Shown piece by piece: positions 12,201-62,631 of a DNA stretch of 64,000 nucleotides. This stretch comes from Hormiphora californensis (taxonomy: Eukaryota; Animalia; Ctenophora), in NCBI GenBank assembly GCA_020137815.1, contig CM035355.1, forward strand, positions 6,758,001-6,822,000, given 5' to 3'. The translations under genes and the position numbers were made by a program. Each line of letters begins with the position of its first letter. Within the stretch, counting starts at the first letter, position 1. Below the pieces are notes generated by a model. The model saw only the letters and a list, made by a program, of their open reading frames with translations, made no database searches and was not told the DNA's origin.

Positions 12201-12588
12201 ATAAGGAACCATAATAAAGTTCAAGAGCCTCCAAGAGCACCCAAGAGCGTACCCGATCGAAGAGAGACCACACCTGAGAGCGCACCACACCCAAAAGAGA
12301 CCACATCCAAGAGCGGACCACCTCCAGAAGACACCACTTCAAGAGCGCACCACATCAAAGAGAGTTCCCCATCCAGAAGATACCACGCGCAGGGGACACC
12401 ACGCGCAGAAGAGACCAGCGCGGCGTTGTATTTGCGCGTGCGGTCTCTTCTGCGCGTGGTGTCCCCTGCGCGCGGTATCTTCTGGACGGGGAGCTCTCTT
12501 TGATGTGGTGCGCTCTTGGAGTGGTGTCTTTTGGAGGTGGTACGCTCTTGGATGGGGTGCGCTCTTGAACTTTATTATGGTTCCTTAT
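12201..12588. mobile_element. Palindromic MITE/foldback element
   Basis: ATAAGGAACCATAATAAAGTTCAAGAGC ... GCTCTTGAACTTTATTATGGTTCCTTAT termini. Arms are built of AAGAGCGCACC-type subrepeats. Probable TA target. Confidence 0.8.
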
Positions 12589-12663
12589 TGTTCATTTCCA
12601 TTTTTTGCCTCTCACAAATTTCGGGCGCCGTTACGATCTGGGTGTTTGGAGGCCTGTTTAATC

Positions 12664-12883
12664 TCGGATTTTTTGAAACTGTCACCCCCCCTGAGTTTTC
12701 AAATTTCTTTAAATGACCATAAGTCCGGTTCCTGATGAGATAGAGACTTGAAATTTGGAGGTTATAAAGATCTTGCTAAGTTCTTCCGAACCTCCAAATT
12801 TCAAGTCTCTATCTTATCAGGAACCGGATATATGTTAATTTTGTTATTTCAGGGGGGTGACAGTTTCAAAAAATCCGACTTTA
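12664..12883. mobile_element. ~220-bp palindromic MITE (same family as 45716-45939)
   Basis: TCGGATTTTTTGAAACTGTCACCCCCCTGA inverted termini; near-identical copy in opposite orientation at 45716-45939. Confidence 0.85.
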
Positions 12884-17400: not shown

Positions 17401-20400
17401 TCACTTTTAATTAGTTTTTCGATTTCTTTAAACTTTTCGGCAATCGTGCTAGTGCAAATGGTCGTGTCTGGTGTTCCTATAAAGTTAAACACCCCCTTTT
17501 CTTCACATCTCACTTCCTCCCTGGGCATAAACCCTTCGGAACAGGATATTTCTACCTTTTCTCCCCGCTGAAAGTGGGTCAGTTATCAAAAACGCAAATA
17601 AAGAAATAGTGGTTTCCATGGCAATAGTGGTTTCCATGGAAATAGTGGTTTCCATGGCAATAGTTGCTTACCAACACTTCATGATTCGTAGTGATGGTTC
17701 CGTTTCCAATGATTTCACTACTCAGTTCATCCGTATCACAAGTTAAGGCCCATGACACAGCGATGACACTCTTTGTTTCTGTGTCGTCAATCTTACAAGT
17801 AAACGTCCCCTCTTCTTCAACAATAATCGCTGATTGCCATCCTCCTACTGTCCACTTTTCCGTGACTCCACTTTTAATTTCATCTTCTTTACTCCAGGAG
17901 AGTTTCCTGTAAGGCTCGTTCTCGGCCGTACAGAACAGTGTCACACTCTGTCTATCTCGTAGAATTGTCGAAGATGCGCTGAGTTTCAGTTTCGGTTGAT
18001 CTTTCACGAATTCAATGTCAAAGTTGGTCAGTAGTTGTTTGTTGGTGAAGGTTACAGTATCACTTGAGGTTAGGGTCATGGCCGGGTCGAGGATTAGTTG
18101 CTGGGGAATCTTGTACCAACGGCGAGAGAGACTCAATGTGATTTCTTGGGCGCCCTAACGGGGCGATAAAAGATACGTTGTTAGATTTGATAGATCTGTT
18201 AGACCAAAAACTAACTGAGATACACGTTGGTGAACTTTCATACTTACATTCGAATTGTGCTCGGCATTGACCTCCATGTAAACATTTTCCAGGGAGCTAT
18301 TCGTAATTGTGGTCAGTATAAACCTCACCTCAGTCAAAGTAATTTTCTTCTGAGAGTGTGCAGTATTAATTGAGGTAACTGGTAAATAAATCAATATTTT
18401 ACTGGTAATGGATGGATAAAATAAACGAAATATATCTTACCTCACTTGCACTGCTATAAATTAGCACCTTCGTATTTGAAATGTTGCTGCCGTTATTAGG
18501 TTTCACAAGTTCTGATTTTTTACTCAGATTAAACCCTGGTAGGATCATAAATCAGTATAACAATTTATGGCTTACGCCCTACTAGTCAGGACCACTATTG
18601 GTGTGCGGTCGTGCCCACGGAAGAAGTGTTTGGATCATCTTGAAACCGGTTTTAAGTTAACTAATGCATATCCAAAAGTGTCTGTAGCTATTTGGGTGAT
18701 GTTCTGACAATCCAATCACGAGTTATGACCAAAAACAGTCAAAAAAGATGTTTTGAAGTGACAAAAAGGAGGACCTGAACACAGCCCTTATATGAAGGGT
18801 TGGGGCTATGAAACTTCTTGAGTGGATAGAGAATCGTCCAAATTTGCAGTCTCAACTTTGGAATAGTTTCTATCTTTTGTAGTTATCTAATTAGAGCCGT
18901 TTAAACATGTGAGAAGATGCTGTAGGGGCCTCTAATACTGTGCATTCTTGCTTGTGAAGTGATCACTTGACGAGATTTACCCAAGTCCCAATTAGAGAGC
19001 AGATTAAAGCATACAAGCGGTGAGAGCAAGCAATATGGGTCGGAAACAGTACCAAATTACCCTGTTTTGCAGATCGTCTCACATGTTTAAACAGCTCTAA
19101 TTAGATAACTACAAAAGATAGAAACTATTCCAAAGTTGAGACTGCAAATTTGGACGATTCTCTGTCCACTCAAGAAGTTTCATAGCCCCAACCCTTCATA
19201 TAAAGGCTGTGTTCAGGTCCTCCTTTTTGTCACTTTAAAACGTCTTTTTTGACTGTTTTTTGGTCATAACTCGTGATTGGATTGTCTGAACATCACCCAA
19301 ATAGCTACCGACACTTTTGGATATGCATTAGTTAACTTAAAACCGGTTTCAAGATGATCCAAACACTTCTTCCGTGGGCACGACCGCACACCAATAGTGG
19401 TCCTGACTATACCCGCTTCTTGTTTCTGGACTCTGGTACACCAACTTGATATTTAGTTACTGTAGTCCCTTTTCAATGTGCTAAATAATCTGCAATAAGG
19501 GGCCTGCAGCGTATGCCAAACTAAACACGGCTATAGACTTGCTCTTAAAATTACATACGTGGTGCTCGTTTACAAAGCACTCTGTTCTCAGTATCTCTGC
19601 CGGATATTTCTCGAAACCGATCTACTACCACATCTCCCTTGGGTGAGATAACCGCAATTGCACTTTGGCTCGTATCGCATTTGTTTGCCTCGTATTCCTG
19701 GTGTGATAGCCGAATTTTAGGTATAAACCTAGGCTAGAGACAGGAGAGGGCCCCTTTGATACAGTCGGACCCAGCTTTAACGGCAGGATAATCGGGGTCC
19801 GATTTTATTTAGTTTTGCTCCGCTCCCGAAACCAGAACTAAAGCAGGGCAGCTAGGATAAATCCAGTGCCGGGGGTGCTGATATCCCTTTCAACATAGAA
19901 CAAGAACCCTAAGATAAGTTAATTTACCTACCAACAAATATGGAGGTTCCATTTGGGCAGATTTGTTGCACGCTGACACTCTAAAGATTTCCCCCGGATA
20001 AAGTTCTCCTATTTTCCATCGTTCTAGTTCTGAGCTAGGCGTAACAGGGATTCCGTAGCCTTCATCCGCACAGGCACCCTTCAAATCCGAGTTGAACGGG
20101 ACCGTGTAGTACTCAACTGCAATAAAGAACTGAGTAAATTGGTTGGGGTGAAGCAAAAGAAAACTATTATAATATTTATATGATGTCCTTATAATTTATA
20201 AGAACATCATATAAATAATTTGCCCTTCTTCTTCTTCTTCTTCTGATGTTACCTTACCGTCCGATGCAGTACACAGGGTATACTCGCAGCTATAATTCTG
20301 GGCACATCTGAAAATAAAATATTATTGACGATAACTTAGTTTGTTAAGGGATGCTCTTGACAGTGCTCGACAGAGGTAAATCTGGAGCTTGGACAACACT

Positions 20401-26545: not shown

Positions 26546-27455
26546 TATTAGGTCATTCGGTAAATATCTGGACAGGTATGTTTGTGAGAGAACGGAGCTA
26601 GATAGAGCCAAGCGACCTGTTCCAGCGTCTTCCTTGGAATTTTTAGGTTGGACTAGGATGGTGGGAACCTTCGCCTGCTGGCAGTATTGCCTCACGAGCA
26701 ATATGTTTCAATGCTACTCTTGCTGCCGCTTTATGCAAGAAAAAACTGTGGCACTACGGATGATTGAATATGTCATGGCATTTTCTCTATTGGGGACAGA
26801 TGATCGGTTTGACCAGTGTTCCTAGATCACTTTTTTAGCCTGAAGATGATGCAACCATAATTGAAGCGTTTAGATTCCATCTTCATCCTTAAAAATTGGA
26901 TTTTTGCCAAAATTGCTCCTTGCACACTTCATGGCCGTTTTTGTACGTTCTAAACGTCTAAATGACTTGAATCCAACGTTAAATGTTAGCTTATACAATT
27001 TTCTAGGTCCTATGTTAGTTTTATTACGATCGGTCAATGGGTACCTGGCTCATGGCGGCTTTTTTCAACATTTGTAAAAAAAATTAAAATTCAGCTTTAC
27101 CAAATCTAGCGAAAATCGCTTCCCCGTGCTAGAAATTTTATCCAAAAATTTCAGGAAGGTTTATGGAGTATCTCAAGGCATTTAATAAGCAATATATAGG
27201 GTTAAAAACTTTCCGAATGATCCGGAAGTAGGTCATATTGGTCCAAAATTGAGTTAAAAGTTAGCATAAAGCGGCAGCTAGAGTAGCATTGAAACATATT
27301 GCTCGTGAGGCAATACTGCCAGCAGGCGAAGGTTCCCACCATCCTAGTCCAACCTAAAAATGTCCAAGGAAGACGCTGGAATAGGTCGCTTGGCTCTATC
27401 TAGCTCCGTTCTCTCACAAACATACCTGTCCAGATATTTACCGAATGACCTAATA
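26546..27455. mobile_element. Non-autonomous TIR element with ~190-bp inverted arms
   Basis: TATTAGGTCATTCGGTAAATATCTGGACAGG... / ...CCTGTCCAGATATTTACCGAATGACCTAATA; probable TA target. Confidence 0.88.
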
Positions 27456-32811: not shown

Positions 32812-35800
32812 CTACAAACTAATCTTTCTAACATTCGTCTTGACCTCAAGAGCAGCAACTTGTAAAGGCCACGAATGTGATTCAATCCCCGCTTGGAGTG
32901 CTACCCCAGTACACACTGCCAGTTCAGGATCAATACTAGTGTTCAGTTCTTTGCCATCAAAATATTCAGATATTATCTCGCGTATACGAGGTATCCGAGT
33001 ACTACCACCGACTAGCACAATGTCACTGATGTCAGAGCGTTTCAGTTCTGCGTATTTGAGAGTCGCTTCTATTGGCTCCAAGACCTGGGGGAGGGGAGAA
33101 ATAGGCTTTACAACTTTTGAAATACTAGAAAATCAAAGAAGAATCACAGGAAATGAAAGTTAGAATAAGATATTATTGTCGGTTTGAGCCCGACCCTCGC
33201 AAGACATTTTTCTAATTTCCCACTCTCAGATCTCATTCACGAAATGAAAGTTGTAATACCTTATCAAAAAGATGTTTATTGATACTTTCAAAGTCATCTT
33301 TAGTAACAGACAGGGTAACCCTAATTGGTGTCTGTCCCTTTCCACCTTGTAATGACATGTTGACTTCAACTGTGTCCCTTTTACTAAGGTCTAACTTTAT
33401 CCTCTCACATTCCTCTCTCAGAACCTAGGCAGGGTTTGGGGATCTAGGAACTTGGTTACTAGGCAGGATTGGGGTCTAGGAACTTGGTTAGGCAGGGTTG
33501 GGGGTCTAGGAACTTGGTTAGGCAGGGTTGGGGGTCTAGGAACTTGGTTAGGCAGGGTTGGGGTTCTAGGAACTTGGTTACAAGAAGGTAGAGCTTTCTA
33601 TGGTATACAAAGTTGGGGGTTGAAGGAAAATGTGATACATCCTTCCATGGCGTACAAAAATGGAGGATGGAAGCTAAAATTAGGAATTGAAATTTTACCT
33701 GGTGATCAATATCAGATAGAGCTGATTGTTCAACACCAAACTCCGTACGGGCCCTTTCTAACAAGTGTTGGTATAGGACTTCATTAAAGTCCTGACCTCC
33801 CAACCTGTTGTTTCCTGATGGTGGGAGAGATTTGTTGGAAAGTAGAAAAGGCTTGAAAACAGCCAGTAGGGGAAATGTGGCCTAAAGGGCGGAAGACACT
33901 GTGAATTTGTGTGTGTCTGTACATTCACAGTTCACTTGCTTGTCAACACTGGACACATGTGTGTAGTTACTACACTGTAGTACACCTTACCAAAGATAGT
34001 GGAGGTGAGGTATCATCAGTCCTCAAATTAATTTGTTTAAAGTAGTGTTGAAAAGTTTGAAACTTTTCAACACTACTTTAAACAAATTAATTTGAGGACT
34101 GATGATGTAGATTCTATCAACGAAAGTACTTTCCCAAATCCGATTGTCGTCACTTCGTTACCTCACCTCCCCTACCTTGTTTCAACCAAACCCCGGGGTA
34201 ATGGACGACCGGAGCTAAATTATGATGGCACACTGACTAGGAGGGAAGCCCTTGCACCCAACCCTTGTCTTCACCTTACCAAAGACTAGCAAGTCAAATA
34301 GCTGATTTGGGCTCTCCAACACAGAGGGGGTGTTAGGGAAGCCCTTCAATACAAGTATTTATGCTATGCCAAGTACATATTATATCGTAAATACTACAAC
34401 TTCAGCTACTAGAAAGATCAAGAGTCACATCCAAAATTATACACACATTATCTTCAAGATCAAGAAACACACAGTACCTGCAAGAGCGACGGTTGCAAAC
34501 ATGGGTCCGTTAGTAAAAAGAAGAGAGACATCTGATGTACCACCACCAATATCCACTACCATCACATAGGCAGACTCTGCAGGAGAGGGGGGAGTTAGTA
34601 ATTTGGTTCTCCAGCCCTCTTGGGCATACACGCAGTGTAGGGCGGAAATGGAGAAATATAGAGAAAGAAAGGGAGAGAAAGGAAAAGTAATAACTTGCCA
34701 ATAGTATAATGTTCAATACATTCTGTACAATGCAACTGTATACAATTAATGTACAGTCTGTGTAACTGTACTGTGAACTGTGTAATTGTGCAGCACTGTG
34801 TGTATGTAAGCCCAGAAAGGAATGTTTTCTTGGCACACAACACTGGAGTATTTAACGTGAGCACACTTCTTAAAAATATAGGAACTAAGTTTAAAAGTAT
34901 GTTAGAGGGTCGAGCAAGATAAAAAGTGTGAATATAGGATAGTCATATTAGGACTCACCATCTTTTTTGTGAAGCCCATAAGCCATGGCAGCTGCAGTAG
35001 GTTCGCTGATAATCTTCTTGATCTTCAACCCGGCCAGTTTACCAGCTTGGGCTGTATAGTTTCTCTGTTCCTGTAAAAGAGGACGTGTTGCTGGATGTTA
35101 CTGACCGTATTTCGAATGACTAAATCGGTAAACTGATTAAATAAAAACATAATTTCTCATTCCAACTAGTTCGACAGATTCTGTGACAGAAGAAGAAGAC
35201 ATGTCATATTGAGGGTAGAATTTGAAACCTGTAAATACACGATCCAACAACCAACTACCCCTCCTCATTCCCCTACCTCCCACACCACCCGCCCCAAAAA
35301 CTATCACTGTGAACCTCCTAGTATACCTCATCAAAGTCAGCAGGTACACTCATAACTCCCATGTTAATGGCTGATTCAATACGCTTCTCTGCTGTAGCTC
35401 TCAATTCTTTCAGGATTTCTAAAATCGGGTAGAAGAACGGGTACAATTAGAAAGAACTAAAACTATGAAAAAGTTAAATGTTTACAATGAACTATGAAGT
35501 ATCATGAATGAGATATAATCACGATGAAGTAAGAAGTATAAAATTCACCTGCCCCAATGTCCTCTGGTTTTAGCATTCGCTCCTCCCCGTTATCGAACTT
35601 GATGTAGAAGTAGGGTTTCTCCTGAAGTCGTGTCAGTTTGAAACTGTACAAATTCTGCAACTCGTCCAACTCCGCCTGAAACAAGAATTGTAATGCCATC
35701 GATACGGTATGTGTCGAAAAAAGTAAATTTTCTTAATTTCCATGCAACAGATCGTTACACCAAACCGCTGACAAATGTTTGTTAGAACTTTTATTTGGGT

Positions 35801-38800
35801 ATCACGGAAGATGCTTGATACGAAATAACCCCTCTTCGTAACCAAGGAAGATGCCCGACTCTTAGTACCGGTTTCAGGACAAGTACCTTTGTCCGTTACT
35901 ATAGAGTTCACACCAGTAACATCGTATTTCTTTTGCCATTAGTTTTTATCGAGAGCGTAGTTCTTTTTTGACATTTTATCGGAAAACTCATCCTTTTGTT
36001 CATAAGATATAACAATTGTTTTGAAACTGATTTAGCATGGTAATACGTTTATATGCTTCAAAGACTATAGATAAACCGGGGCTAAACCATTTATTGAGTA
36101 GCCTAGTCAGACCTGGGTCATTGAAGCTGAAGCCTAATAAACGGATTTGCCACCTGGTTTAGAATGCTATTTCCTACTATAAAACCGTAGAGTTTTAGGA
36201 GACTCACCACCAGAAATCAAAACCAAGATGATTTTCTTCACTCTACTGATTGGAGTCTCCACGGCTCTAAATGCCGCTCCCGAGGTGCTTCAGTCTGCCC
36301 TGAGCAACCCTACCGCCTTCCGGGCCCTCTTTTCTGAGTACCAGGCTGCCGAAGGGAAGGAACTACGTCGAGGAGAGCAGAGGCTCCGAGCATCTATCTT
36401 CCGAGCCAACATCCAGGAGATTGCTGCCCATGACGCTGAAGAGGCTGGATGGTCCCAGGAGCTGAACATGTTCGCTGATATGACTGAAGAAGAGAAGGCC
36501 AGCTATACTGGATTCAACGCCTCCGCTATGGTGAGCGATGACGCTGATGATGATGTTCGACCCGGACCCCAGCTCGGAGACCCTGCTGAGAAGGACTGGA
36601 GGGGTGTTGCTGTGACCTCAATCAAGAACCAGGGCAACTGCGGATCTTGCTGGATCTTCTCCGGATTTGGAGCCCTCGAGGGACACTACAAGATCCAGGG
36701 AGGCAGTCTGACGGACTTTGCTGAGCAGGAGGGTCTCGACTGCATCAAGAGGGGTGGATGTAATGGTGGAATTATGAGTGATGTGTTTGACTGGCTGAAA
36801 AAGTCTGGCCGAGTTGGAGCTACCAAGGATATCCGATATACCGCCCGTCAGGGTTCCTGCAACTACAGCAACAAACCTAACGCCCTCACCGCCTTCAAAG
36901 TTACTGGTTACACCAACGCTAGGGGAGACAGTGCTCATGTTACCGCTCTTGCTACCTCAGGACCCCTGTCTGTTGGATACAGCGTTGCTAACGACTTCAT
37001 GCGGTATAGGGGAGGAATTTACGACAACAGGAACTGTAACGGCGGAGGTCACGCCGTCGTCAGTGTTGGTTATACCAGCACATACTTCCGAATGAAGAAC
37101 AGCTGGGGAACCCGATGGGGAGAGAGTGGATACTTCCGAATTGCCCGAGGAAACGTCTGTGGAATCACCAACATGGGATTCGCTCCCCGATTGTCTTCCA
37201 GCAGAATGAAAGAAGAGTGAGAAGATGATGATGGTAAGGAATGCCCCGAGGGATGGAAGATGTGTCCTGATGGCAAGTGCATTCATGTGCATTGGTTTTG
37301 TCAGTAATGATTAAGTTGTAGTTTAATTTTCTCGCAAAACTAATTCACCGTGTTTTACTATGCTTCAGTCAAACTTTTCAACACTACTTTAAACAAATTA
37401 ATTTGAGCAGGTAGATATGGTGATGTGACAGCCCCTATGGGCAGACCGAACGATATGGTAGTTATTCCAGTACGTCAAGAGGAGCTGACTCAGGCTGATT
37501 TGGATTGGTATGCGAGCCGGATCCTGACCATGGTCAAGTATGCAGGGATTCCTTCACCGGATTTAACCAGAAAGTTAGGGAGTAGCCCTGAGGATATCAG
37601 GGAAATACCGACATCTTTCAATATCCACTCATCCCACACGAAACGTGATTTGGCATCTGTATTAGAAGATGTATTTATGTCGACCTTGCCACTTCTAAAG
37701 TACTTCCAACATCGTTTCAACGTCGAGAAGTCGCCTGAGTTGGAATTAAAGGAAGAAAGAGATGAACTGTTGAGAAAGAGTTTGGAGTTGCAGAAAAAAG
37801 AGGAGATATTGAGAGTTGAGATGGATGACCTGTTGAGAAAGACTGTTAGGTTACAAGAGCAGGTCATTGAGCTTCAGGACACTCAACTACATCGAGTAAC
37901 CGAAACAGTGCAGAAAGATCTGCGCTCTTTCTCAACTGTCTTGACGCAGAATTGTAGGTCTGCTCTTGCACCGAAAAATATCAAGAAAGATGAAGGGAAA
38001 GCTCATGGCAAAAAAGTTGATTCGAGTCTAGATCCAGGCAGATCCAAAAATCTGATGGTGTTTGGTCTACCGGAAGTTGAGGCGGAATCTGAATCTGTGT
38101 TGAAATGTGAGATAGAGAATCTTTTGGCTGAGCTTGATGAGAAACCTATTGTTGTAGCTAAAAGGGTGGGTTTGAAACGGGAAGGAAGGGAGAGACCCGT
38201 GATCGTGAAGCTACAGAGTAGAGAAATGCTGCTGAGCCTTCTCCAGAAGGCTAGGCAGTTGAAACAGTCCGAATCGTACTGCGGTGTATACTTGTCAAGA
38301 GATATGTCACTCGCAGAGAGAACGGAGAGGAGGGAACTCCACCTTACATTGAAGGAGTTAAGGGAATCAAATCCCGAAAGACAATTTCGGATACGGAAAG
38401 GAGCGATAAACTTTTCATAGACTATCTTTATAAACTGGACTCTTAAATGGACTCATATCTTTGATCAACCGTTTTTTGCCCACAAAAAGGGGCTGATAAT
38501 TTTATACATCAAACTGTGTAAATTATTATATAGATTTAATAAATAATAATAAATACTATGCTTGCGATACACAACGATTATCTGGGGGAAGGGTTGCATA
38601 GGGAACAAAGACTAGACACCATTTTAATACTTCGCTCACTCTCTTTTTCACAGTCCATAACCCTAATATCCAAACCAAATCAACCATGAAACTTCAACCA
38701 ATGTAACCACCTTCAGATGCTAAAGTAAAGTGGTGCAAGCACCCTGACAGTTATCTGCACTACCACGTCAGGGGCCGATACGAGTACAAAATCCTCCAAA

Positions 38801-41800
38801 AAGCCAAAGCAGCCTGTTCTCGAAGAAGGGACTGTAGGGGAATAACCCAGGAGCCGTCACGTCACCTTAACATAGCATCGTAGAACCGCCAGAATCACAT
38901 GAGCACAGGAACACGGGAACACAGGAACACGGGAATACGGGAACACAGGAATACGGGAACACAGGAGCACGGGAACACGTGACATCATGGCTACTCACTC
39001 AGATGGATATGAGTCCCCGTATGTACAACGTCCTAAGCGTGCATACGCTTCAAGGGGTACTATCTCGGGATCGCCAGAATCACGGAAACACTGGAACACG
39101 GAATCACAGGAACACAGAATCACGGGAACACTGGAACACAAAGTTCATCGTTCACACATTCACGCATCACAGAGATTCATAAACACGATCATATTAAAAC
39201 TCAGGGACGGTCGATCACACAGACGAGACTCACACACGATGTTCAGTGGTGGGAGAGAGAAGAACCCCGAGAGAGAAGAATCTCTCTTCTGTCTCTCTTC
39301 ACTTCAGCTTAAATATCCCGTCAACAAAACAGTCACGTGACTTCTGTACCAGAAACAACAGGGGTACTACCAAACTTTGCGACACGCTCTCCGGACTAGA
39401 ACTGTTAACACCTTTCAAGTCAAGATGGCGGCCTATTCAGATTCATAGATCTGAATAACCTTCCCTAAAAACTAAACTAAACTCTACTAGTAACTCTGCC
39501 GATCTCACTAGCTCTCTCTGTTTATCAATGCATTCCACAGGTCTAACCGGGCTCTCTCAACACGTTCACATGTCAATAACATTCACATGTCAATAAGCAC
39601 CAGGTCATATCTAGAACTAAAGTAAGGGGACGGGGTGGACTTAGAGGTACGGGGAACATGGGCATCTCTCATATCCCACAGCACTATGTCTATATGTATT
39701 TTATAGTCTGTTGCTATAGAGTTCACACCAGTTAAATAATATTTCTTTTGCCTTTAGTTTTTATCGAGAGCGTAGTTCTTTTTGACATTTTATCGGAAAA
39801 CTCATCCTTTTGTTCATAAAATATAACAATTGTTTTGAAACTGATTTAGCATGGTAATACGTTTATATGCCTCAAAGACTATGGCTAAACCATTTATTGA
39901 GTAGCCGGGTCTGGGTCATTGAAGCTGAAGCCTAATAAACTGATTTGCCACCTGGTGTCGAATGGTTTTTCCTACTATAAAACCGTAGAGTGTGAGGGGA
40001 CTCACCACCAGAAATCAAAACCAAGATGATTTTCTTCACTCTACTGATTGGAGTCTCCACGGCTCTAAATGCTGCTCCCGATGTGCTTCAGTCTGCCTTG
40101 AGCAACCCTACCGCCTTCCGGGCTCTCTTTTCTGAGTACCAGGCTGCCGAAGGAAGGAACTACGTCCGAGGAGAGCAGAGGCTCCGAGCGTCTATCTTCC
40201 GAGCCAACATCCAGGAGATTGCTGCCCATGACGCTGAAGAGGCTGGATGGTCCCAGGAGCTGAACATGTTCGCTGATATGACTGAGGAAGAGAAGGCCAG
40301 CTATACTGGATTCAACGCCTCCGCTATGGTGAGCGATGACGCTGATGATGATGTTCGACCCGGACCCCAGCTGGGGAACCCTTCTGAGAAGGACTGGAGG
40401 GGTGTTGCTGTGACCTCAATCAAGAACCAGGGCAACTGCGGATCTTGCTGGATCTTCTCCGGATTTGGAGCCCTCGAGGGACACTACAAGATCCAGGGAG
40501 GCAGTCTGACGGACTTTGCTGAGCAGGAGGGTCTCGACTGCATCAAGAGGGGTGGATGTAATGGTGGAATTATGAGTGATGTGTTTGACTGGCTGAAAAA
40601 GTCTGGCCGAGTTGGAGCTACCAAGGATATCCGATATACCGCCCGTCAGGGTTCCTGCAACTACAGCAACAAACCTAACGCCCTCACCGCCTTCAAAGTT
40701 ACTGGTTACACCAACGCTAGGGGAGACAGTGCTCATGTTACCGCTCTTGCTACCTCAGGACCCCTGTCTGTTGGATACAGCGTTGCTAACGACTTCATGC
40801 GGTATAGGGGAGGAATTTACAACAACAGGAACTGTAACGGCGGAGGTCATGCCGTCGTCAGTGTTGGTTATACCAGCACATACTTCCGAATGAAGAACAG
40901 CTGGGGAACCCGATGGGGAGAGAGTGGATACTTCCGAATTGCCCGAGGAAACGTCTGCGGAATCACCAACATGGGATTCGCTCCCCGACTGGCTTCCACC
41001 GGAATGAAAGACGAGGGAGAAGAAGATGATGGTAAGGAATGGATTAAGGAATGCCCCGAGGGATGGAAGATGTGCCCAGATGGCAAATGTATTCATGTGC
41101 ATTGGTTTTGTCAGTAAATGATTAAGTTGTAGTTTAATTTTCTCGCAAAACTAATTTAACGTGTTCAACTATGATTGTGACACACAACGAGTGGGGGAAG
41201 GGTTGCATTTCCGAAAACATAGACCCTATTTATGCGGTCACCCTCGAAAACTGTAATTGAATTACAATAATTCCGATTAGATTAATAAGGCATGGGCAGG
41301 AAACAAACTCGATTCCATGGTACATAATACCCGCCGGTAGTAACCAATGTAACCACCTGCAGATGCTAAAGTAAAGTGGTGCAAGCACCCTGACAGCTAT
41401 CTGCACTACCACGTCAGGGGCCGATACGAGTACAAAATCCTCCTAAAAGCCAAAGCAGCCTGTTCTCGAAGAAGGGACTGTAGGGGAATAACCCAGGAGC
41501 CGTACAACGATAACATGTACACCCTGAGACAAGGACCCAAGCTTTACGAAGGGAGAAGTACTAATGGGGAGACTTCCTGGGTGGTTTGTTAACTGATGTC
41601 ATGAAGTTAGAATGTTTTTAATGCTGAAAAATAAGATTATATTTTATCATGAAACGATGTTTTCAATTTGAACATGTCCTCGGGTCTCTTCCAAACCCCT
41701 AACTTTACTTCTGTCTGTAGTTTCACACAAACATTTGTTAGTCGTTTTGTCAGAGATTTTATTAGCACTAAAAAGAAGTTATTGATCGGGTCATCCCAAC

Positions 41801-45715: not shown

Positions 45716-45939
45716 TAAAGTCGGATTTTTTGAAACTGTCACCCCCCTGAAATAACAAATTTGTCATATCTCCGGTTCCTGATAAGATAGAGACTTGAAA
45801 TTTGGAGGTTCGGAAGAACTTAGCAAGATCTTTATAACCTCCAACTTTCAAGTCTCTATCTCATCAGGAACCGGACTTATGGTCATTTAAAGAAATTTGA
45901 AAACTCAGGGGGGTGACAGTTTCAAAAAATCCGACTTTA
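45716..45939. mobile_element. Palindromic MITE, TA-flanked (family of 12664-12883)
   Basis: TA-AAGTCGGATTTTTTGAAACTGTCACCCCCTGA ... TCAGGGGGGTGACAGTTTCAAAAAATCCGACTT-TA. Confidence 0.85.
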
Positions 45940-46095
45940 AAGTCCATTTTTTTTTCAACTGTTCACCCCCCAAAGTCGTGCGCGGAATTGTTTTGCGCGT
46001 TTATCACATGTTAACGTGTAGCGCGCACCACGTAAATTAAAATATCGCACGCACACGAGTTGAAGGGTGAACAGTTGAATAAAAATGGACTTTAA
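45937..46095. mobile_element. Short palindromic MITE-like element
   Basis: TTAAAGTCCATTTT...TCAACTGTTCACCC / GGGTGAACAGTTGA...AAAATGGACTTTAA. Confidence 0.65.
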
Positions 46096-54206: not shown

Positions 54207-55090
54207 GGAAGAGAGACTGAAAAGCTGTCTACACTGCAAGCACCCCGTGAGAGTGGAGAAACAGAATAAAATGACTGAAGAAGACCTAAGAGTGGGAAAA
54301 TTGCAGATTCCTTTTGAAAAGAGGAAACGGAAGGGAATTTCTAGTGAATATATATTCTGCTGCGCCCTATGACATGGGATTACTGCAGCAATATAAAAAT
54401 CAGGAAGTAGTAGGAGAAAGAATCAAAGTGAATTCTAATTTAGGAGATTAATGAAGAGAGAGGGAGGGAATGAGAGAGATAGAGAGAATGAGGGAGAGAA
54501 CCAGGGATTCGTACTGGCTTAATGAAATGTGCAAGGGTCGTTAGTTTCCTGCTTTACTAGTAAGATGATTCTCGAAAACACACATAATGTAGCAAATCGG
54601 CACTTTACTTAGAACAACACACTGCCAATCAACTTAGATCTAAAAACAGGAGTTCTAAATCGCAATTTGGATACGAAGAAACAACAAGATACCGATATAT
54701 GGAGTTAAAAAGAGATAGAGAGAGCAACCTCATTTCTCTCAATCGATTGACCACTAAAACACGACAAGTGCCCTCGATAGATCTGAGTAGTGCTCATTAT
54801 GGGAGGGCTGATTGACGTGAATTGACCTAATTAGTTGTCTAGCACACATTTAGTAGGGTAATAAGGCCATAGAAACATTCTAACTATCTCTCTCCTCTCT
54901 CTCTGTCCTCTCCCTCCCCTTCTATCGATCTATCTCTCTTCCACTTTCTCTGTTTGCTACTCACAAACTCCTCCCTAATCGGACTCTTTCTCACGTCATC
55001 CACAAAGCGATAACCGATCCATTTAACCATGGCAATTACTTACAGTGCACATGGGATTAAAATGATAGAGAGAATGATAAACCCAAATAA

Positions 55091-56031
55091 TAGTAGGGTC
55101 GGTTGTGGGAAGTTGGGTCTGGAATTTTAAATTTGACTTGCTGATATGATTAGGGACTCTATAAAAAGTCCAAAGTACCATCCCACAGGTCTCTAACACC
55201 CCCGGTTCACTAATTAGCCGTAATTATGTGATTTACGACGTTATCGCCAATTAGCACTAATAATACCAGTTCCTGGTCACTTAGAGCTTAGATTTTGATA
55301 CCAGCTGATAGAGGATAACTAGATTAGTGGGCATTCAAAATTTTAGGTCGATCGGAGTTATGGTCGAGGAGTTATAACCGTTTTTCCGTTTGGCTGGCGG
55401 TTGGCTGGCACCACGTGGGATTACGGGTTTAGGTCGTCGTGGGAGGTCGTCATTGGTCGCGTTCGATCGGGCTCGATGAGGTGATCAAAACCTAGTGGGG
55501 CCAGACGTTGGCCCCACCCCGTTCTTGGGTTATTGGGCTTTTTCGGTTTCCCGCCAAAATATTTTCCCGCCAAAACCGAAAAAGCCTAATAACCCAAGAA
55601 CGGGGTGGGGCCAAGGTCTGGCCCCACTAGGTTTTGATCACCTCATCGAGCCCGATCGAACGCGACCAATGACGACCTCCCACGACGACCTAAACCCGTA
55701 ATCCCACGTGGTGCCAGCCAACCGCCAGCCAAACGGAAAAACGGTTATAACTCCTCGACCATAACTCCGATCGACCTAAAATTTTGAATGCCCACTAATC
55801 TAGTTATCCTCTATCAGCTGGTATCAAAATCTAAGCTCTAAGTGACCAGGAACTGGTATTATTAGTGCTAATTGGCGATAACGTCATAAATCACATAATT
55901 ACGGCTAATTAGTGAACCGGGGGTGGTAGAGACCTGTGGGATGGTACTTTGGACTTTTTATAGAGTCCCTAATCATATCAGCAAGTCAAATTTAAAATTC
56001 GAGACCCAACTTCCCACAACCGACCCTACTA
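55091..56031. mobile_element. ~940-bp near-perfect palindromic foldback element
   Basis: TAGTAGGGTCGGTTGTGGGAAG... / ...CTTCCCACAACCGACCCTACTA. Arms ~458 bp with very few mismatches; spacer ~20 bp around 55550-55572. Confidence 0.92.
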
Positions 56032-56279
56032 ATAAAGAGAGAATGACTGGCCAAAATGAAGAGACAAAAAGGGTAGAATTATAACTGAGAGAGAGCCTCC
56101 AAAGTACTACTTTTGGAGTGAGGATTCTCATGAAATGCAACTCAGTAAGTTGGATCGCGAGTCGCCGACGACGTCGTGATAGTCATAAAAGTTTTGCAAG
56201 TCGAGACAATAGCTAAGAGGCGAAGAAAGAAGGGTGAGAGAGAAATTAGGGATAGAGAGAGAAAGAGAGGGAGACAGAG

Positions 56280-58905: not shown

Positions 58906-61900
58906 TCCGGAAGATGTCAGGTTCCAAGAAAATGGGCAGAAAGTGCAGGGCTGTACAAAATGTGGAATTACGTGCAGTCCAAAATATTAATAGCCCTAAT
59001 TGTGTTAGGAAAAACCTCTCTCTCACTTTTTCTCTCCTTCTTTCTCTATCTCTCTCTGTGCAGCGTTGCGTGGGAAACTGTGTGAAAAAGTACACCCAGT
59101 GTGTGTGCAGCACCAATGACTTACCACCAACCAAACATGGCTGGAGCGCCCAACTGGCCAAACAGTAAACACCGTCCCAATAACACACTAGTCCAGAATA
59201 TATTCTAAACAGTGGTTACTGCCCCTTTACTATTGGAGCTGCCCCAGCACTGGGTAATATATGCAGATGTGTAGCTAAGTTGGTTATCATGCAGTGTGTT
59301 TTGAAGCATAATTGTGAACAGAATCATGAAGTGTATTATTGACATCTACAATCGGGGACCAATGAAAGACTAAATGATTAGACGAGGGAGAGAAGCTACG
59401 AGGGAGAGAAGCTACCATGGGGAGGTTACAATAAAAGAAAGAAGCTATCTGAGAGCTTGAGTCTGTGTATTTTCCTAAGAATTAGAAACCAGACAGATCA
59501 CGGACACTAAGATGGTTCTTGGCACGTCACGGACGCTTTGCTGGCAAGTATCTACATAAGAACAAGATCGGTAGCAGCTGTAGAACTATTGACAATGGTG
59601 GGAAAGTGCTAGACGACAAACGAGGATCTTTATCTATAAAACATGTCATATTTCCTCTCTCCTAATAGATAGTATCTGTATCGGACTTGTCAGGCACTGA
59701 CTGTACATCACGCACCCCGGCCCGGTGCGAAGAGGACGGTCTTATATGAGACAATATTGGACACACTGAATCATGCAAGAAGTCAACTGCTACTGTTACA
59801 GTAATACTGTTTATGTACAAAACCGAGCTACAGCAAGAAAATACATGATGACATGAGAGTGACACAACGAGCGGGAAATGAATCATAAAAAAGAGAGGGA
59901 GACACCAGCAAAAAAGGGAGGGAAATGTAACTATACAGATCAAGCTACTACCACACTCTAAACGTGAAACAGCATTGGTTGTTGCAACAACTTGTGGTTT
60001 TCAGCTATACACAAGATGGGAATCTGGTGGGAGAGTGTGTTACCCCTGGTAACCACACATCACGTGACTCTCTCCAAGCGCTCTCATTGGTCAATCCCAA
60101 TACCACGTGATCTTGTTCTCGTCTCTCATTGGCTAACAAGATCTCACGGCCAGCTCTACAGTTAAGAAGGAAGTGAAGGAGGAGGATTTTAAAGAACCAT
60201 GGGAGAAAATACCCCTAATACCACGTGACCTAAATACTGTATTCTCATTGGTTGAGAGGAAGTGGTTGACGGATTTCTATTGGTCGACCCCCTACAATGG
60301 GTGCATCCCCCCAAAACAACAAGAGGGGTCGAACCCGGAAGGGTATTGCAGATAATTAATATTTGGAGAAGGGGAGAGAGACAACGTACGATTAATTGGC
60401 ATTGTTCCCTGTCAAATAGTTGTAAGGGGAAGCGTTTGCGTTGGGCCTACTGTAGAGAGAGAGAGTGCCGAGGGGTATAGAGTGGGGAGTCGGGGACTAT
60501 AATAGTATATGATGTACTACATGCATGATCTTATGAGTATATGATTGTGAAGTAACAATAACTAGAAAAGTAAATCGTTTTACTCGCCACACAATCAAGT
60601 AATTAATTTTACTCACCCTTTTTTCGCACTCCGTCGCTACGTTTATCCGTGCTGAAATGGAATTTAGATTAGCAAACTAAAACAACCCCAAAACGCTTAA
60701 CCCCTTATATCCCAAAATGTCAAAAGTACATCGTAACCCCTCTTTCACCCCAATAAACCAATCACAATCTGACAAACATACAAGAAGAGGAAGAAATATT
60801 GCAGATTGACCCATGATCAATGCAGTCACCATGGTTACCATGGTAACCACAGGAATTCCCCTCCACAACAACCCCCATCATCACCCCATCATCTGCATCA
60901 TAATCCTCATCATCATCATTCACCCACAACCAGAGAATCAGGGAGAAATGAAGGACAAGAACCGAGGCTAGGATAACAAACAAAAACGACATGATCCAGA
61001 AAGATATGGTTTGAATTTCTCGGATAATACAATGTCTCAATGTGGAAGATATAGCGAGACTATATTGAGGATCAAATATAGGGCCGCCAGCCTCTGTTAT
61101 CTATAATAGTCTGCAGACAAGACAATTTGAAACAGTTCTTTGTCCCAAATCCACATCTTCGGTTTCATAAAAAACTCGAGACTCATTAAACAAATCTATG
61201 AAACTCAAAACCTTGCAATCAGATTTCAAGGAAGATCAGCGAACATGGATCATGAAAAATATAATTTCCTGCAGTCACCATCGCTTGATCGTAGTCACAA
61301 TCATTTGAATCGGAAGAACGCTGTTTACCACCTACCTCAGTAAAGTATGGAATTATAGCTACTGCTGCAATGGCTGGAAACAATGTAGGTCGACATTCTA
61401 TTCACAGGAGCTGTGTGTTTTCCTTTTGGTGATCAGTCGCATAAAAATAGCAAAATTAGCCCGGAACTCAATTTAACCGCATACAAAAAGGGAAAAAACC
61501 CATTCACTCCATCCCCCCCCTCCTTTTCCCCTCCTCCCCCTTTCCCCCCCCCTTTCCCCCTCCTCTTTCTCTTCCCTTTTCTTTTTTCTCCCCCCCCCTT
61601 CCCCCTCTCTTCTCTCTCCTTTCCCCTTTCCCCACATTAAACGGTAGGCCCCCTGACGGAAACGGGGGTTGTGATTGGGCGTAGGCCCCCCCGGGAGAAC
61701 GAGTAAAAATGGTAAGGGGTTTAATGGGAAAAGGGAAAGGAAGGAAAAAAAAAGGAAAGAAGGTGGGGGGAGAAGAAAAAAAGGGGGGAAAAAGGGGGGA
61801 AAAAGGGGAAAAAAAGAAACAGGGGAATAAAACCTCTGCCGCTACGGGAAAAAAGGGGGGGACACGAAAAGGGGAAATAAAAAATATCCAACAACCAAAG

Positions 61901-62631
61901 GGGCAATGAAAAAACCCGGGTTTATGAGTTTAAAACGTTTGGACTGGGGGTAAAAAGTTTTTGGATAGAAAACGGGGGGAAAGGGAGGAAAGAGGAAGGG
62001 GGGGGAAAAAAAAGAAGGGGGAAAAGGGGGTGGAAAAGGGGGGAAAAAAAATTCCCCAAAAAAATTGAACGGCTCGAAAATAAAACCCCCCCTTGCTTGC
62101 AGGGAAAAAAAAGGGGGAAAAAAGGGGGGGGGAAAAAGGGGGAAAAAACCCAGAAAAGGGGGGGGGGAAAAAAAAAAGGGAAAAAAGGGAAAAAAGGGGA
62201 AACAAAGGGGGGGGAAAAAAGGGGGAAAAAAAGGAGGAGAAAGGGGGGAAGGAAAAGGGGGGGGGGGGAAAGGAAAAAAAAAAGGGGTTTGGAAAAAAAA
62301 GGGGGGGGGGGCTTTTGAGTCACTATCAGGGGGTCTCTCCTGGGGGTAAACTATCCTCTCTGGGACGGCCTACTCATCTTCTCAGGGGAGGCGTAAATGG
62401 CTGGAGTAGTCCTCCGGGGGCTAACTGTGGGGACTACTTCTGGGAGGGGTAAACTATCGACGTGGCATACGTGCGTCCAAAGAGAGTGGGTAAGGCGTGA
62501 GACCCATGCGGACAAGCTTGTAGATTAAAGTGTGTAGATGTGCGTGCATAGTACGGCCCTCTCGTGGTAGTACACAGCAGCTAATCATGGTAATCGGGGC
62601 ATCATTCATTACTGTAGAGAGAGAGAGAGAA

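Follow-up and report, generated by a model that had tools for sequence, protein, structure and literature searches.

How does a spliced leader (SL) come to stand at the head of inserted DNA? The question is raised by a 64,000-bp stretch of the genome of the ctenophore Hormiphora californensis (assembly GCA_020137815.1, contig CM035355.1, positions 6,758,001 to 6,822,000; hereafter the window), in which an identical 37-mer occurs in exact copies at 34022–34058 on the minus strand and at 34060–34096 and 37371–37407 on the plus strand, with no match in any of 100 shuffles. The first two copies lie head to head within a short insert (insert 1, 33997–34271), while the third lies at the head of an insert of 1,188 bp (insert 2, 37366–38553). 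A sequence-only reading of this DNA had recorded the three copies, taken the 37-mer for a ctenophore trans-spliced leader, and proposed a new system in which non-autonomous families are reinserted from SL-capped RNA. The copies and the leader are confirmed here, while the claim of a new system proved overstated, with precedents in the relict leaders of dinoflagellates, the SL-bearing transposon RNAs of Hydra, and HAL1. Insert 2 is quite probably an element of the long interspersed nuclear element (LINE) type that carries only the first open reading frame (ORF1), likely reverse-transcribed by an autonomous LINE; the RNA that was copied had likely been given its leader by ordinary trans-splicing.

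The spliced leader at the head of insert 2

The 37-mer makes up the 3′ part of the ctenophore SL. It corresponds to the 3′ 37 bases of the 44-base leader of H. californensis, which is found on 56% of Iso-Seq reads and in 718 genomic copies; the leader of Mnemiopsis leidyi has 491 genomic copies (PMC8527503). At a density of 718 copies per 110 Mb, the chance of a second SL copy within 3.4 kb is approximately 0.04. The three bases that follow the copies in the window are GAC, GAC, and CAG, and none begins with the GT of a splice donor, as the sequence-only reading had noted. Metagenome contigs were scanned with an exact 27 bases of the leader, which yielded 43 matches at 42 loci, each extending at most 2.5 kb from the match (loci are designated L and a number). 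A scan of viral contigs for the leader returned none. In 30 of the 42 loci the SL lies no more than 24 nt from a contig end and ahead of an open reading frame (ORF). Ordinary Pfam families (E up to 1e-8), including ribosomal proteins, G-alpha, innexin, and calreticulin, were recognised in 26 of these 30 ORFs; the other four had no Pfam match, and a transposon domain was found in none of the 30. One short sequence thus stands at the 5′-end of unrelated mRNAs, which is where the sequence-only reading had expected the 37-mer to be found.

The leader also has an SL RNA gene of its own, at locus L027, where a GT donor (GTAAG) and a T-rich stretch follow it. Two copies of this gene, 778 bp apart, alternate with 5S rRNA in a 778-bp tandem unit, the array being recorded at positions 263–1513 of the locus. 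In folding, the SL RNA stretch outperformed 199 of 200 shuffles. By comparison with this gene, the leader extends beyond 37 nt, and its 5′-end forms an 11-nt near-palindrome with 10 pairs around a G.G mismatch.

Insert 2 and its surroundings comprise the following features:

37356–37365, plus strand: left target-site duplication of insert 2, 10 bp (direct repeat)
37366–37407, plus strand: SL, the first 42 bases of insert 2, comprising the entire leader except for two T missing from its 5′ run
37408–37442, plus strand: short 5′ untranslated region (UTR) motif common to loci L040, L020, L024, and L037, whose closing inverted repeat (GCCC..GGGC) overlaps with the first ATG
37437–38420, plus strand: single ORF of 327 aa
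38478–38493, plus strand: 3′ inverted-repeat motif of 16 bases, identical in L040
38535–38553, plus strand: (TAA)n-type tail
38554–38563, plus strand: right target-site duplication of insert 2, 10 bp
36228–37220, plus strand: host cathepsin gene (papain family C1)
41160–41190, plus strand: empty site behind the cathepsin paralogue (ORF 40026–41117), with one target copy and without the insert

The insertion lies approximately 145 bp downstream of the stop codon of the cathepsin gene, and is bounded by a 10-bp direct repeat, in agreement with the sequence-only reading. A junction repeat of at least 10 bp was found at only 1 of 3000 random pairs of window positions at the same spacing. The tandem cathepsin paralogue, which is 94.6% identical over 1,489 bp, supplies the empty pre-insertion site. 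Because this site contains one target copy and no insert, the leader must lie inside insert 2. The same observation bears on the possibility that the leader is target DNA, outside the copied RNA, left by site-specific insertion into SL RNA genes or their copies in the manner of NeSL or CRE/SLACS elements. Such elements do exist (PMC3636483); for insert 2, however, this explanation is refuted, since the target duplication encloses the leader and no SL is present at the empty site.

Insert 2 ends in a short tandem tail of the (TAA)n type, shared with L040, and no direct or inverted terminal repeats are listed between its two ends. A DNA transposon or miniature inverted-repeat transposable element (MITE) was considered and rejected, as terminal inverted repeats are absent from insert 2 and the inverted repeat of insert 1 is internal and asymmetric.

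The 327-aa ORF matched no Pfam family, a profile search of solved structures returned nothing below an E-value of 0.26, and the protein was recognised through structure prediction only. The full-length model was poor (predicted local distance difference test, pLDDT, 63.8), yet LINE-1 ORF1p ranked first; the model has a long helix ahead of the RRM/C-terminal region. This helix is likely a coiled coil, which is expected ahead of the RRM in ORF1p. A model of residues 192–327, built on a 32-row alignment, reached a pLDDT of 83. With this model, the top 11 rows from Foldseek were all human LINE-1 ORF1p, with a best E-value of 3.4e-7 against 3.5e-3 for the first unrelated row behind them, and VIA-align placed human LINE-1 ORF1p first among 48,161 chains (Z 10.2, root-mean-square deviation 2.6, 87 aligned). 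In the ESM Atlas, residues 185–327 were closest to unnamed eukaryote clusters (0.90–0.92), with a Transposase_22 cluster at 0.87 that serves as a lead only. The predicted protein consists of a helical N-terminus, the long helix, and an RRM and C-terminal domain with the fold of LINE-1 ORF1p. Endonuclease and reverse transcriptase are both absent from insert 2, whose 1,188 bp leave no space for either, and the only product predicted from the models is an ORF1p-type protein, the feature by which HAL1 is recognised.

The protein has 11 relatives at 49–98% identity, including gene models of Pleurobrachia bachei. A second complete copy of the family, L040, shares 75% DNA identity with insert 2 and matches it in the leader, the related 5′ UTR, the 16-base 3′ motif, and the (TAA)n tail. 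To this extent the proposal that non-autonomous families are reinserted holds for insert 2. Over 230 codons, the ORFs of insert 2 and L040 differ at 41, 32, and 87 sites at codon positions 1, 2, and 3, respectively, a bias that indicates purifying selection on the ORF of this family. The shared 3′ motif is likely the signal recognised by the mobilising LINE. The scoring of 7,988 candidates brought up no longer, fused form of the ORF, a negative of little weight. The reading of insert 2 as a retroposed, target-duplicated, non-autonomous element that behaves like half a LINE is thus supported.

Several further observations concern this family and its surroundings. In one P. bachei gene model (P0021), an ORF1 of the insert 2 family is fused to exons that, judged by eye, are apparently of the Par-6 type; the fusion is probably an element within a host intron misread as an exon. 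In three related elements, namely insert 2 (37417–37428), L040, and L024, the leader is followed by an upstream ORF of three codons (ATG-NNN-NNN-stop), which precedes the GC-rich inverted repeat. The cathepsin ORFs at 36228–37220 and 40026–41117, each of them uninterrupted, form a tandem pair in which 973 of 992 aligned coding bases are identical, and the stop codon of the first copy (37218–37220) removes a short Cys-rich C-terminal tail that is present in the second.

Leader-headed elements outside the window and the source of the head

Besides L027, the SL stands directly ahead of an element-type ORF in 11 of the 42 loci. Seven of the 11 form one group, in which a Cys/His-rich ORF1 (31–85% identical) precedes the beginning of an ORF2. 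In L024, a distinct ORF1 is paired with an ORF2. L040 and L020 are related to insert 2 and have ORF1 only. The ORF of L037 is unclassified (family profile match probability 0.1%), and its 5′ UTR resembles that of L040. Seven ORF2 pieces were taken into the endonuclease test, with the 35 codons of L039 left out; six passed the cut-off of the endonuclease family PF03372 and one, that of L006, fell below it (E 0.0015). An ORF1 followed by an ORF2 with an APE endonuclease, the arrangement of an autonomous LINE, is accordingly found among the outside loci. The sequence-only reading had assigned the SL head to non-autonomous elements, which is correct for insert 2 and too narrow in general, as LINEs with an endonuclease ORF2 bear this head too. 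A tblastn search with the element ORFs from 10 loci found no element copy in the window besides insert 2.

The loci divide sharply by data set. Two contig sets hold 11 loci, namely one SL gene, 10 of element type, and no host gene, while six other sets hold 31 loci, of which 30 are of host type and one is L024. From this split we infer that the first two sets are DNA and the other six RNA. At L024 (1897–2289), the SL-headed element is preceded by 351 bases of upstream flank in an otherwise RNA-like data set, and this flank closes with a pyrimidine-rich stretch and a CAG that is separated from the leader by a few bases. L024 may represent either stray DNA or a read-through transcript that was not spliced.

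In 10 of the 11 element loci, the match to the SL gene continues for 8–16 bases past the searched 27 before giving way to unrelated flank; in L039 it continues for one base. The sequences behind the leader are more variable. Over the first 100 bases, identity ranges over 67–93% for pairs that are clearly related; it is 80–93% within the group of L006, L012, L039, and L042, and 65–77% within the group of L040, L020, L024, L037, and insert 2. An unchanged leader on diverged bodies is the pattern that repeated trans-splicing predicts. Element RNAs would be handled as host mRNAs and gain a fresh leader in every cycle, and target-primed reverse transcription that reaches the cap would produce full-length copies starting with the leader, minus 0–15 bases. 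Since trans-splicing discards everything upstream of the acceptor, daughter copies would need a new route to expression. They could be read through and re-spliced, either at the final AG of the leader or at one that follows within a few bases, they could carry a promoter within the 5′ UTR, or they could have no such route, with master copies alone being active.

Alternatively, each family could have captured the SL only once. The leader would now be an ordinary first exon, kept by selection (e.g., for translation) and expressed from an internal promoter, with no further trans-splicing. Internal promoters are usual for LINEs, related 5′ UTR motifs lie behind the leader in five elements, and no stacked, tandem, or relict second SL was seen ahead of the inserts in the window or of any element locus among the 11. 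The absence of stacked leaders would also follow if re-splicing uses the last AG of the leader or a TTTCAG/TTTTAG behind it. These motifs occur in L040, L020, and L024, which count as one observation because the three loci are related. Against a single capture, the leader equals the SL gene beyond the searched bases in nearly all element loci although the neighbouring UTRs have diverged, and at least three unrelated 5′ UTR groups would require separate captures. In Hydra, moreover, approximately 30% of transposon Iso-Seq reads carry an SL, so that trans-splicing of element RNAs is ordinary there (PMC12220107). A single capture per family is thus considered improbable.

Insertion into SL genes fares worse still among the outside loci. 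When nine upstream flanks were compared with the DNA upstream of the SL gene, two scored above 95% of shuffles (L011, 0.005; L020, 0.045). The flank scores of 10–19 nevertheless correspond to fewer than about ten matched bases, and the other seven flanks were at shuffle level. Furthermore, the relatives found here have an APE endonuclease, whereas NeSL and CRE elements have one ORF and a restriction-like endonuclease (PMC3636483). Targeting of SL genes is therefore regarded as a very remote explanation of the head.

Acquisition of a fresh leader in each cycle, followed by reverse transcription by an autonomous LINE, is the preferred explanation, and several points weigh against it. The scan with an exact 27-mer is biased towards unchanged leaders and blind to diverged leaders or leaderless copies, and selection on a fixed leader could mimic the observed pattern. 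The evidence comes from the window and 42 contig loci, no parent copy with an acceptor at the place of the SL being among them, and the RNA of insert 2 is regarded as probably trans-spliced. No autonomous partner for insert 2 was found, nor was a reverse transcriptase domain seen in the outside loci, which end 2.5 kb from the leader match. A target duplication was confirmed in no outside locus, and the flanks of L040 have no clear one. L012, L019, and L037 have only 6, 5, and 1 bases ahead of the leader, respectively, and their genomic origin is taken from the data set. Finally, the ratio of element to host loci is no census, because multi-copy elements assemble more readily than single retrocopies.

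A broader proposal may be put forward tentatively, and is considered rather doubtful as a whole. Ctenophore LINEs and their ORF1-only parasites would be promoterless, and read-through transcription, with a fresh leader spliced on at the AG of the genomic leader or at TTTCAG/TTTTAG, would rebuild their exact 5′-ends in every cycle, so that the SL machinery of the host would solve the 5′-end problem of LINEs. The dispersed leaders of these genomes would then be mostly element heads, and the palindrome of the leader would serve as the joint for head-to-head insertions.

The head-to-head leaders of insert 1

Insert 1 is the shorter of the two insertions and has the following structure:

33983–33996, plus strand: left target-site duplication of insert 1, 14 bp (direct repeat)
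33997–34021, minus strand: inverted arm beyond the SL, equivalent to the plus-arm RNA minus 53 nt (34106–34158), with one mismatch
34022–34064, minus strand: full 43-nt leader, identical to the SL exon of L027 and overlapping the plus copy via the near-palindrome
34060–34096, plus strand: leader of the plus arm, 3′ 37 nt
34097–34271, plus strand: body, 175 nt, with no tail
34272–34285, plus strand: right target-site duplication of insert 1, 14 bp

As for insert 2, the direct repeats reported by the sequence-only reading are present. A junction repeat of at least 14 bp was found at 6 of 3000 random pairs of window positions at this spacing. The structure could be explained by twin priming, in which one cDNA would have been primed from each end of the target, with both extending to the cap, and the two cDNAs would have annealed through the 11-nt near-palindrome of the leader. 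The central base of the junction is G on the top strand, the cDNA-sense base of the leader. This supports twin priming, because a simple fold-back of the right-primed cDNA would leave C on the top strand. We lean slightly towards insert 1 being a single twin-primed insertion of one SL-capped RNA.

Several features speak against this interpretation. The body runs directly into the right duplication with no 3′ tail, internal priming is backed by a 3-base match only, and the loss of 53 nt between the arms is unexplained. No relative of insert 1 was found in the window or among the 42 loci, and for this insert the proposal of a reinserted family therefore did not stand. An intron was tried as the source of the 53-nt difference and rejected, as its ends are not GT-AG. 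The 58 open codons of insert 1 matched no family in a search of Pfam, the only database searched with them.

Inverted ends occur in Penelope-like elements. Insert 1 could be a fragment of a Penelope-like element, or of another retroelement with a hammerhead, for which an inverted 5′-end would be normal, or else a fold-back assembly artefact. A hammerhead-like core (CTGAnGA...GAAA) follows the leader at 34099 and precedes a 12-bp palindrome, the 3′-end of the leader pairs with 34132–34139 in the fold, and the window contains several other fold-backs. However, no Rfam hammerhead family was matched at E-values up to 10, the fold is no better than that of shuffles (z +1.08), and the loose core motif occurs 12 times in the window. 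A read chimera is contradicted by the 14-bp duplication and the unequal arms. These explanations of insert 1 are considered unlikely, and the twin-primed insertion is retained.

Other features of the window are recorded here for completeness. Twelve bases close to the end of insert 1 (34242–34253) are repeated at 34335–34346, 50 bases beyond the right duplication. A palindromic, MITE-like element of approximately 230 bp is present in two copies on opposite strands (12657–12883 and 45716–45941) that are 96% identical. Further fold-backs lie at 12300–12558, 18583–19409, 26546–27455, and 55088–56034, and long runs of G, A, T, and C at approximately 61500–62370 resemble low-quality sequence.

Significance and relation to known systems

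The SL-headed elements offer a testable explanation for the 718 and 491 dispersed leaders of two ctenophore genomes, many of which would be accounted for by elements likely copied back from leader-spliced RNA. The leader could also serve as a one-motif tag for the 5′-ends of full-length LINEs in an early-branching animal group, and it may be that the ‘shared first exons’ annotated in ctenophores are leader reads that were mapped to element heads. Since trans-splicing drops the upstream RNA, a mechanistic question is raised as to how LINE copies that start with the leader keep a promoter. Were re-splicing at the genomic leader to prove true, LINE 5′-ends would be rebuilt in a different way, and transposon load would be tied to the evolution of trans-splicing.

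In dinoflagellates, a genomic SL likewise marks the retroposition of trans-spliced RNA, and an AG inside the DinoSL has been proposed as a re-splicing acceptor (Song et al., 2017, PMC5585692; Slamovits and Keeling, 2008, cited therein). There, host genes are tagged (more than 20% of genes), often with several relict leaders (PMC5585692). The ctenophore case differs in its animal host, in that 10 of the 11 loci in the DNA-like sets are element-type and none is a host gene, and in the absence of stacked leaders. A retrogene of the DinoSL type was rejected for insert 2, which carries an element ORF1 rather than a host gene, and for insert 1 no Pfam match points to one.

Like HAL1, insert 2 is non-autonomous and encodes only an ORF1p-like protein, with the predicted RRM and C-terminal fold of LINE-1 ORF1p (PMC5753468, PMC4859970). 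Unlike HAL1, it starts with a spliced leader and has a (TAA)n tail, and its 5′ UTR is similar to that of L024, in which a different ORF1 accompanies the APE endonuclease. An ORF1p fold also occurs outside the L1 clade, and insert 2 is not classed as HAL1 because neither a reverse transcriptase of its own nor a partner element is available to place it in that clade.

As in Hydra, transposon RNAs appear to make use of host trans-splicing; the Hydra report covers RNA, whereas the ctenophore leader is found in DNA copies at the insertion junction (PMC12220107). NeSL and CRE/SLACS are also non-LTR elements adjoining SL sequence. They insert into SL genes by means of a restriction-like endonuclease, while the ctenophore leader travels inside the insertion to unrelated sites (PMC3636483). 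The inverted 5′ part of insert 1 within one target duplication is reminiscent of the 5′ inversions that twin priming produces in LINE-1 (Ostertag and Kazazian, 2001, cited in PMC4859970); in insert 1, by contrast, both arms reach the 5′-end of the RNA and join via the leader palindrome, with no tail. The window copies have the same leader as the hundreds dispersed through the H. californensis and M. leidyi genomes. These counts were given, in the available part of that report, without a link to retrotransposons, and SL-headed elements are their likely source (PMC8527503).

No SL-headed genomic LINE of ctenophores or other animals was found in the accessible portions of the open full-text literature, a search that did not cover Repbase, nor was any account of SL-headed elements present in the available parts of PMC7986045, PMC12460157, PMC2566580, and PMC4558846. 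On the literature so covered, SL-tagged retrocopies, SL-bearing transposon RNAs, and ORF1-only elements are each already known.

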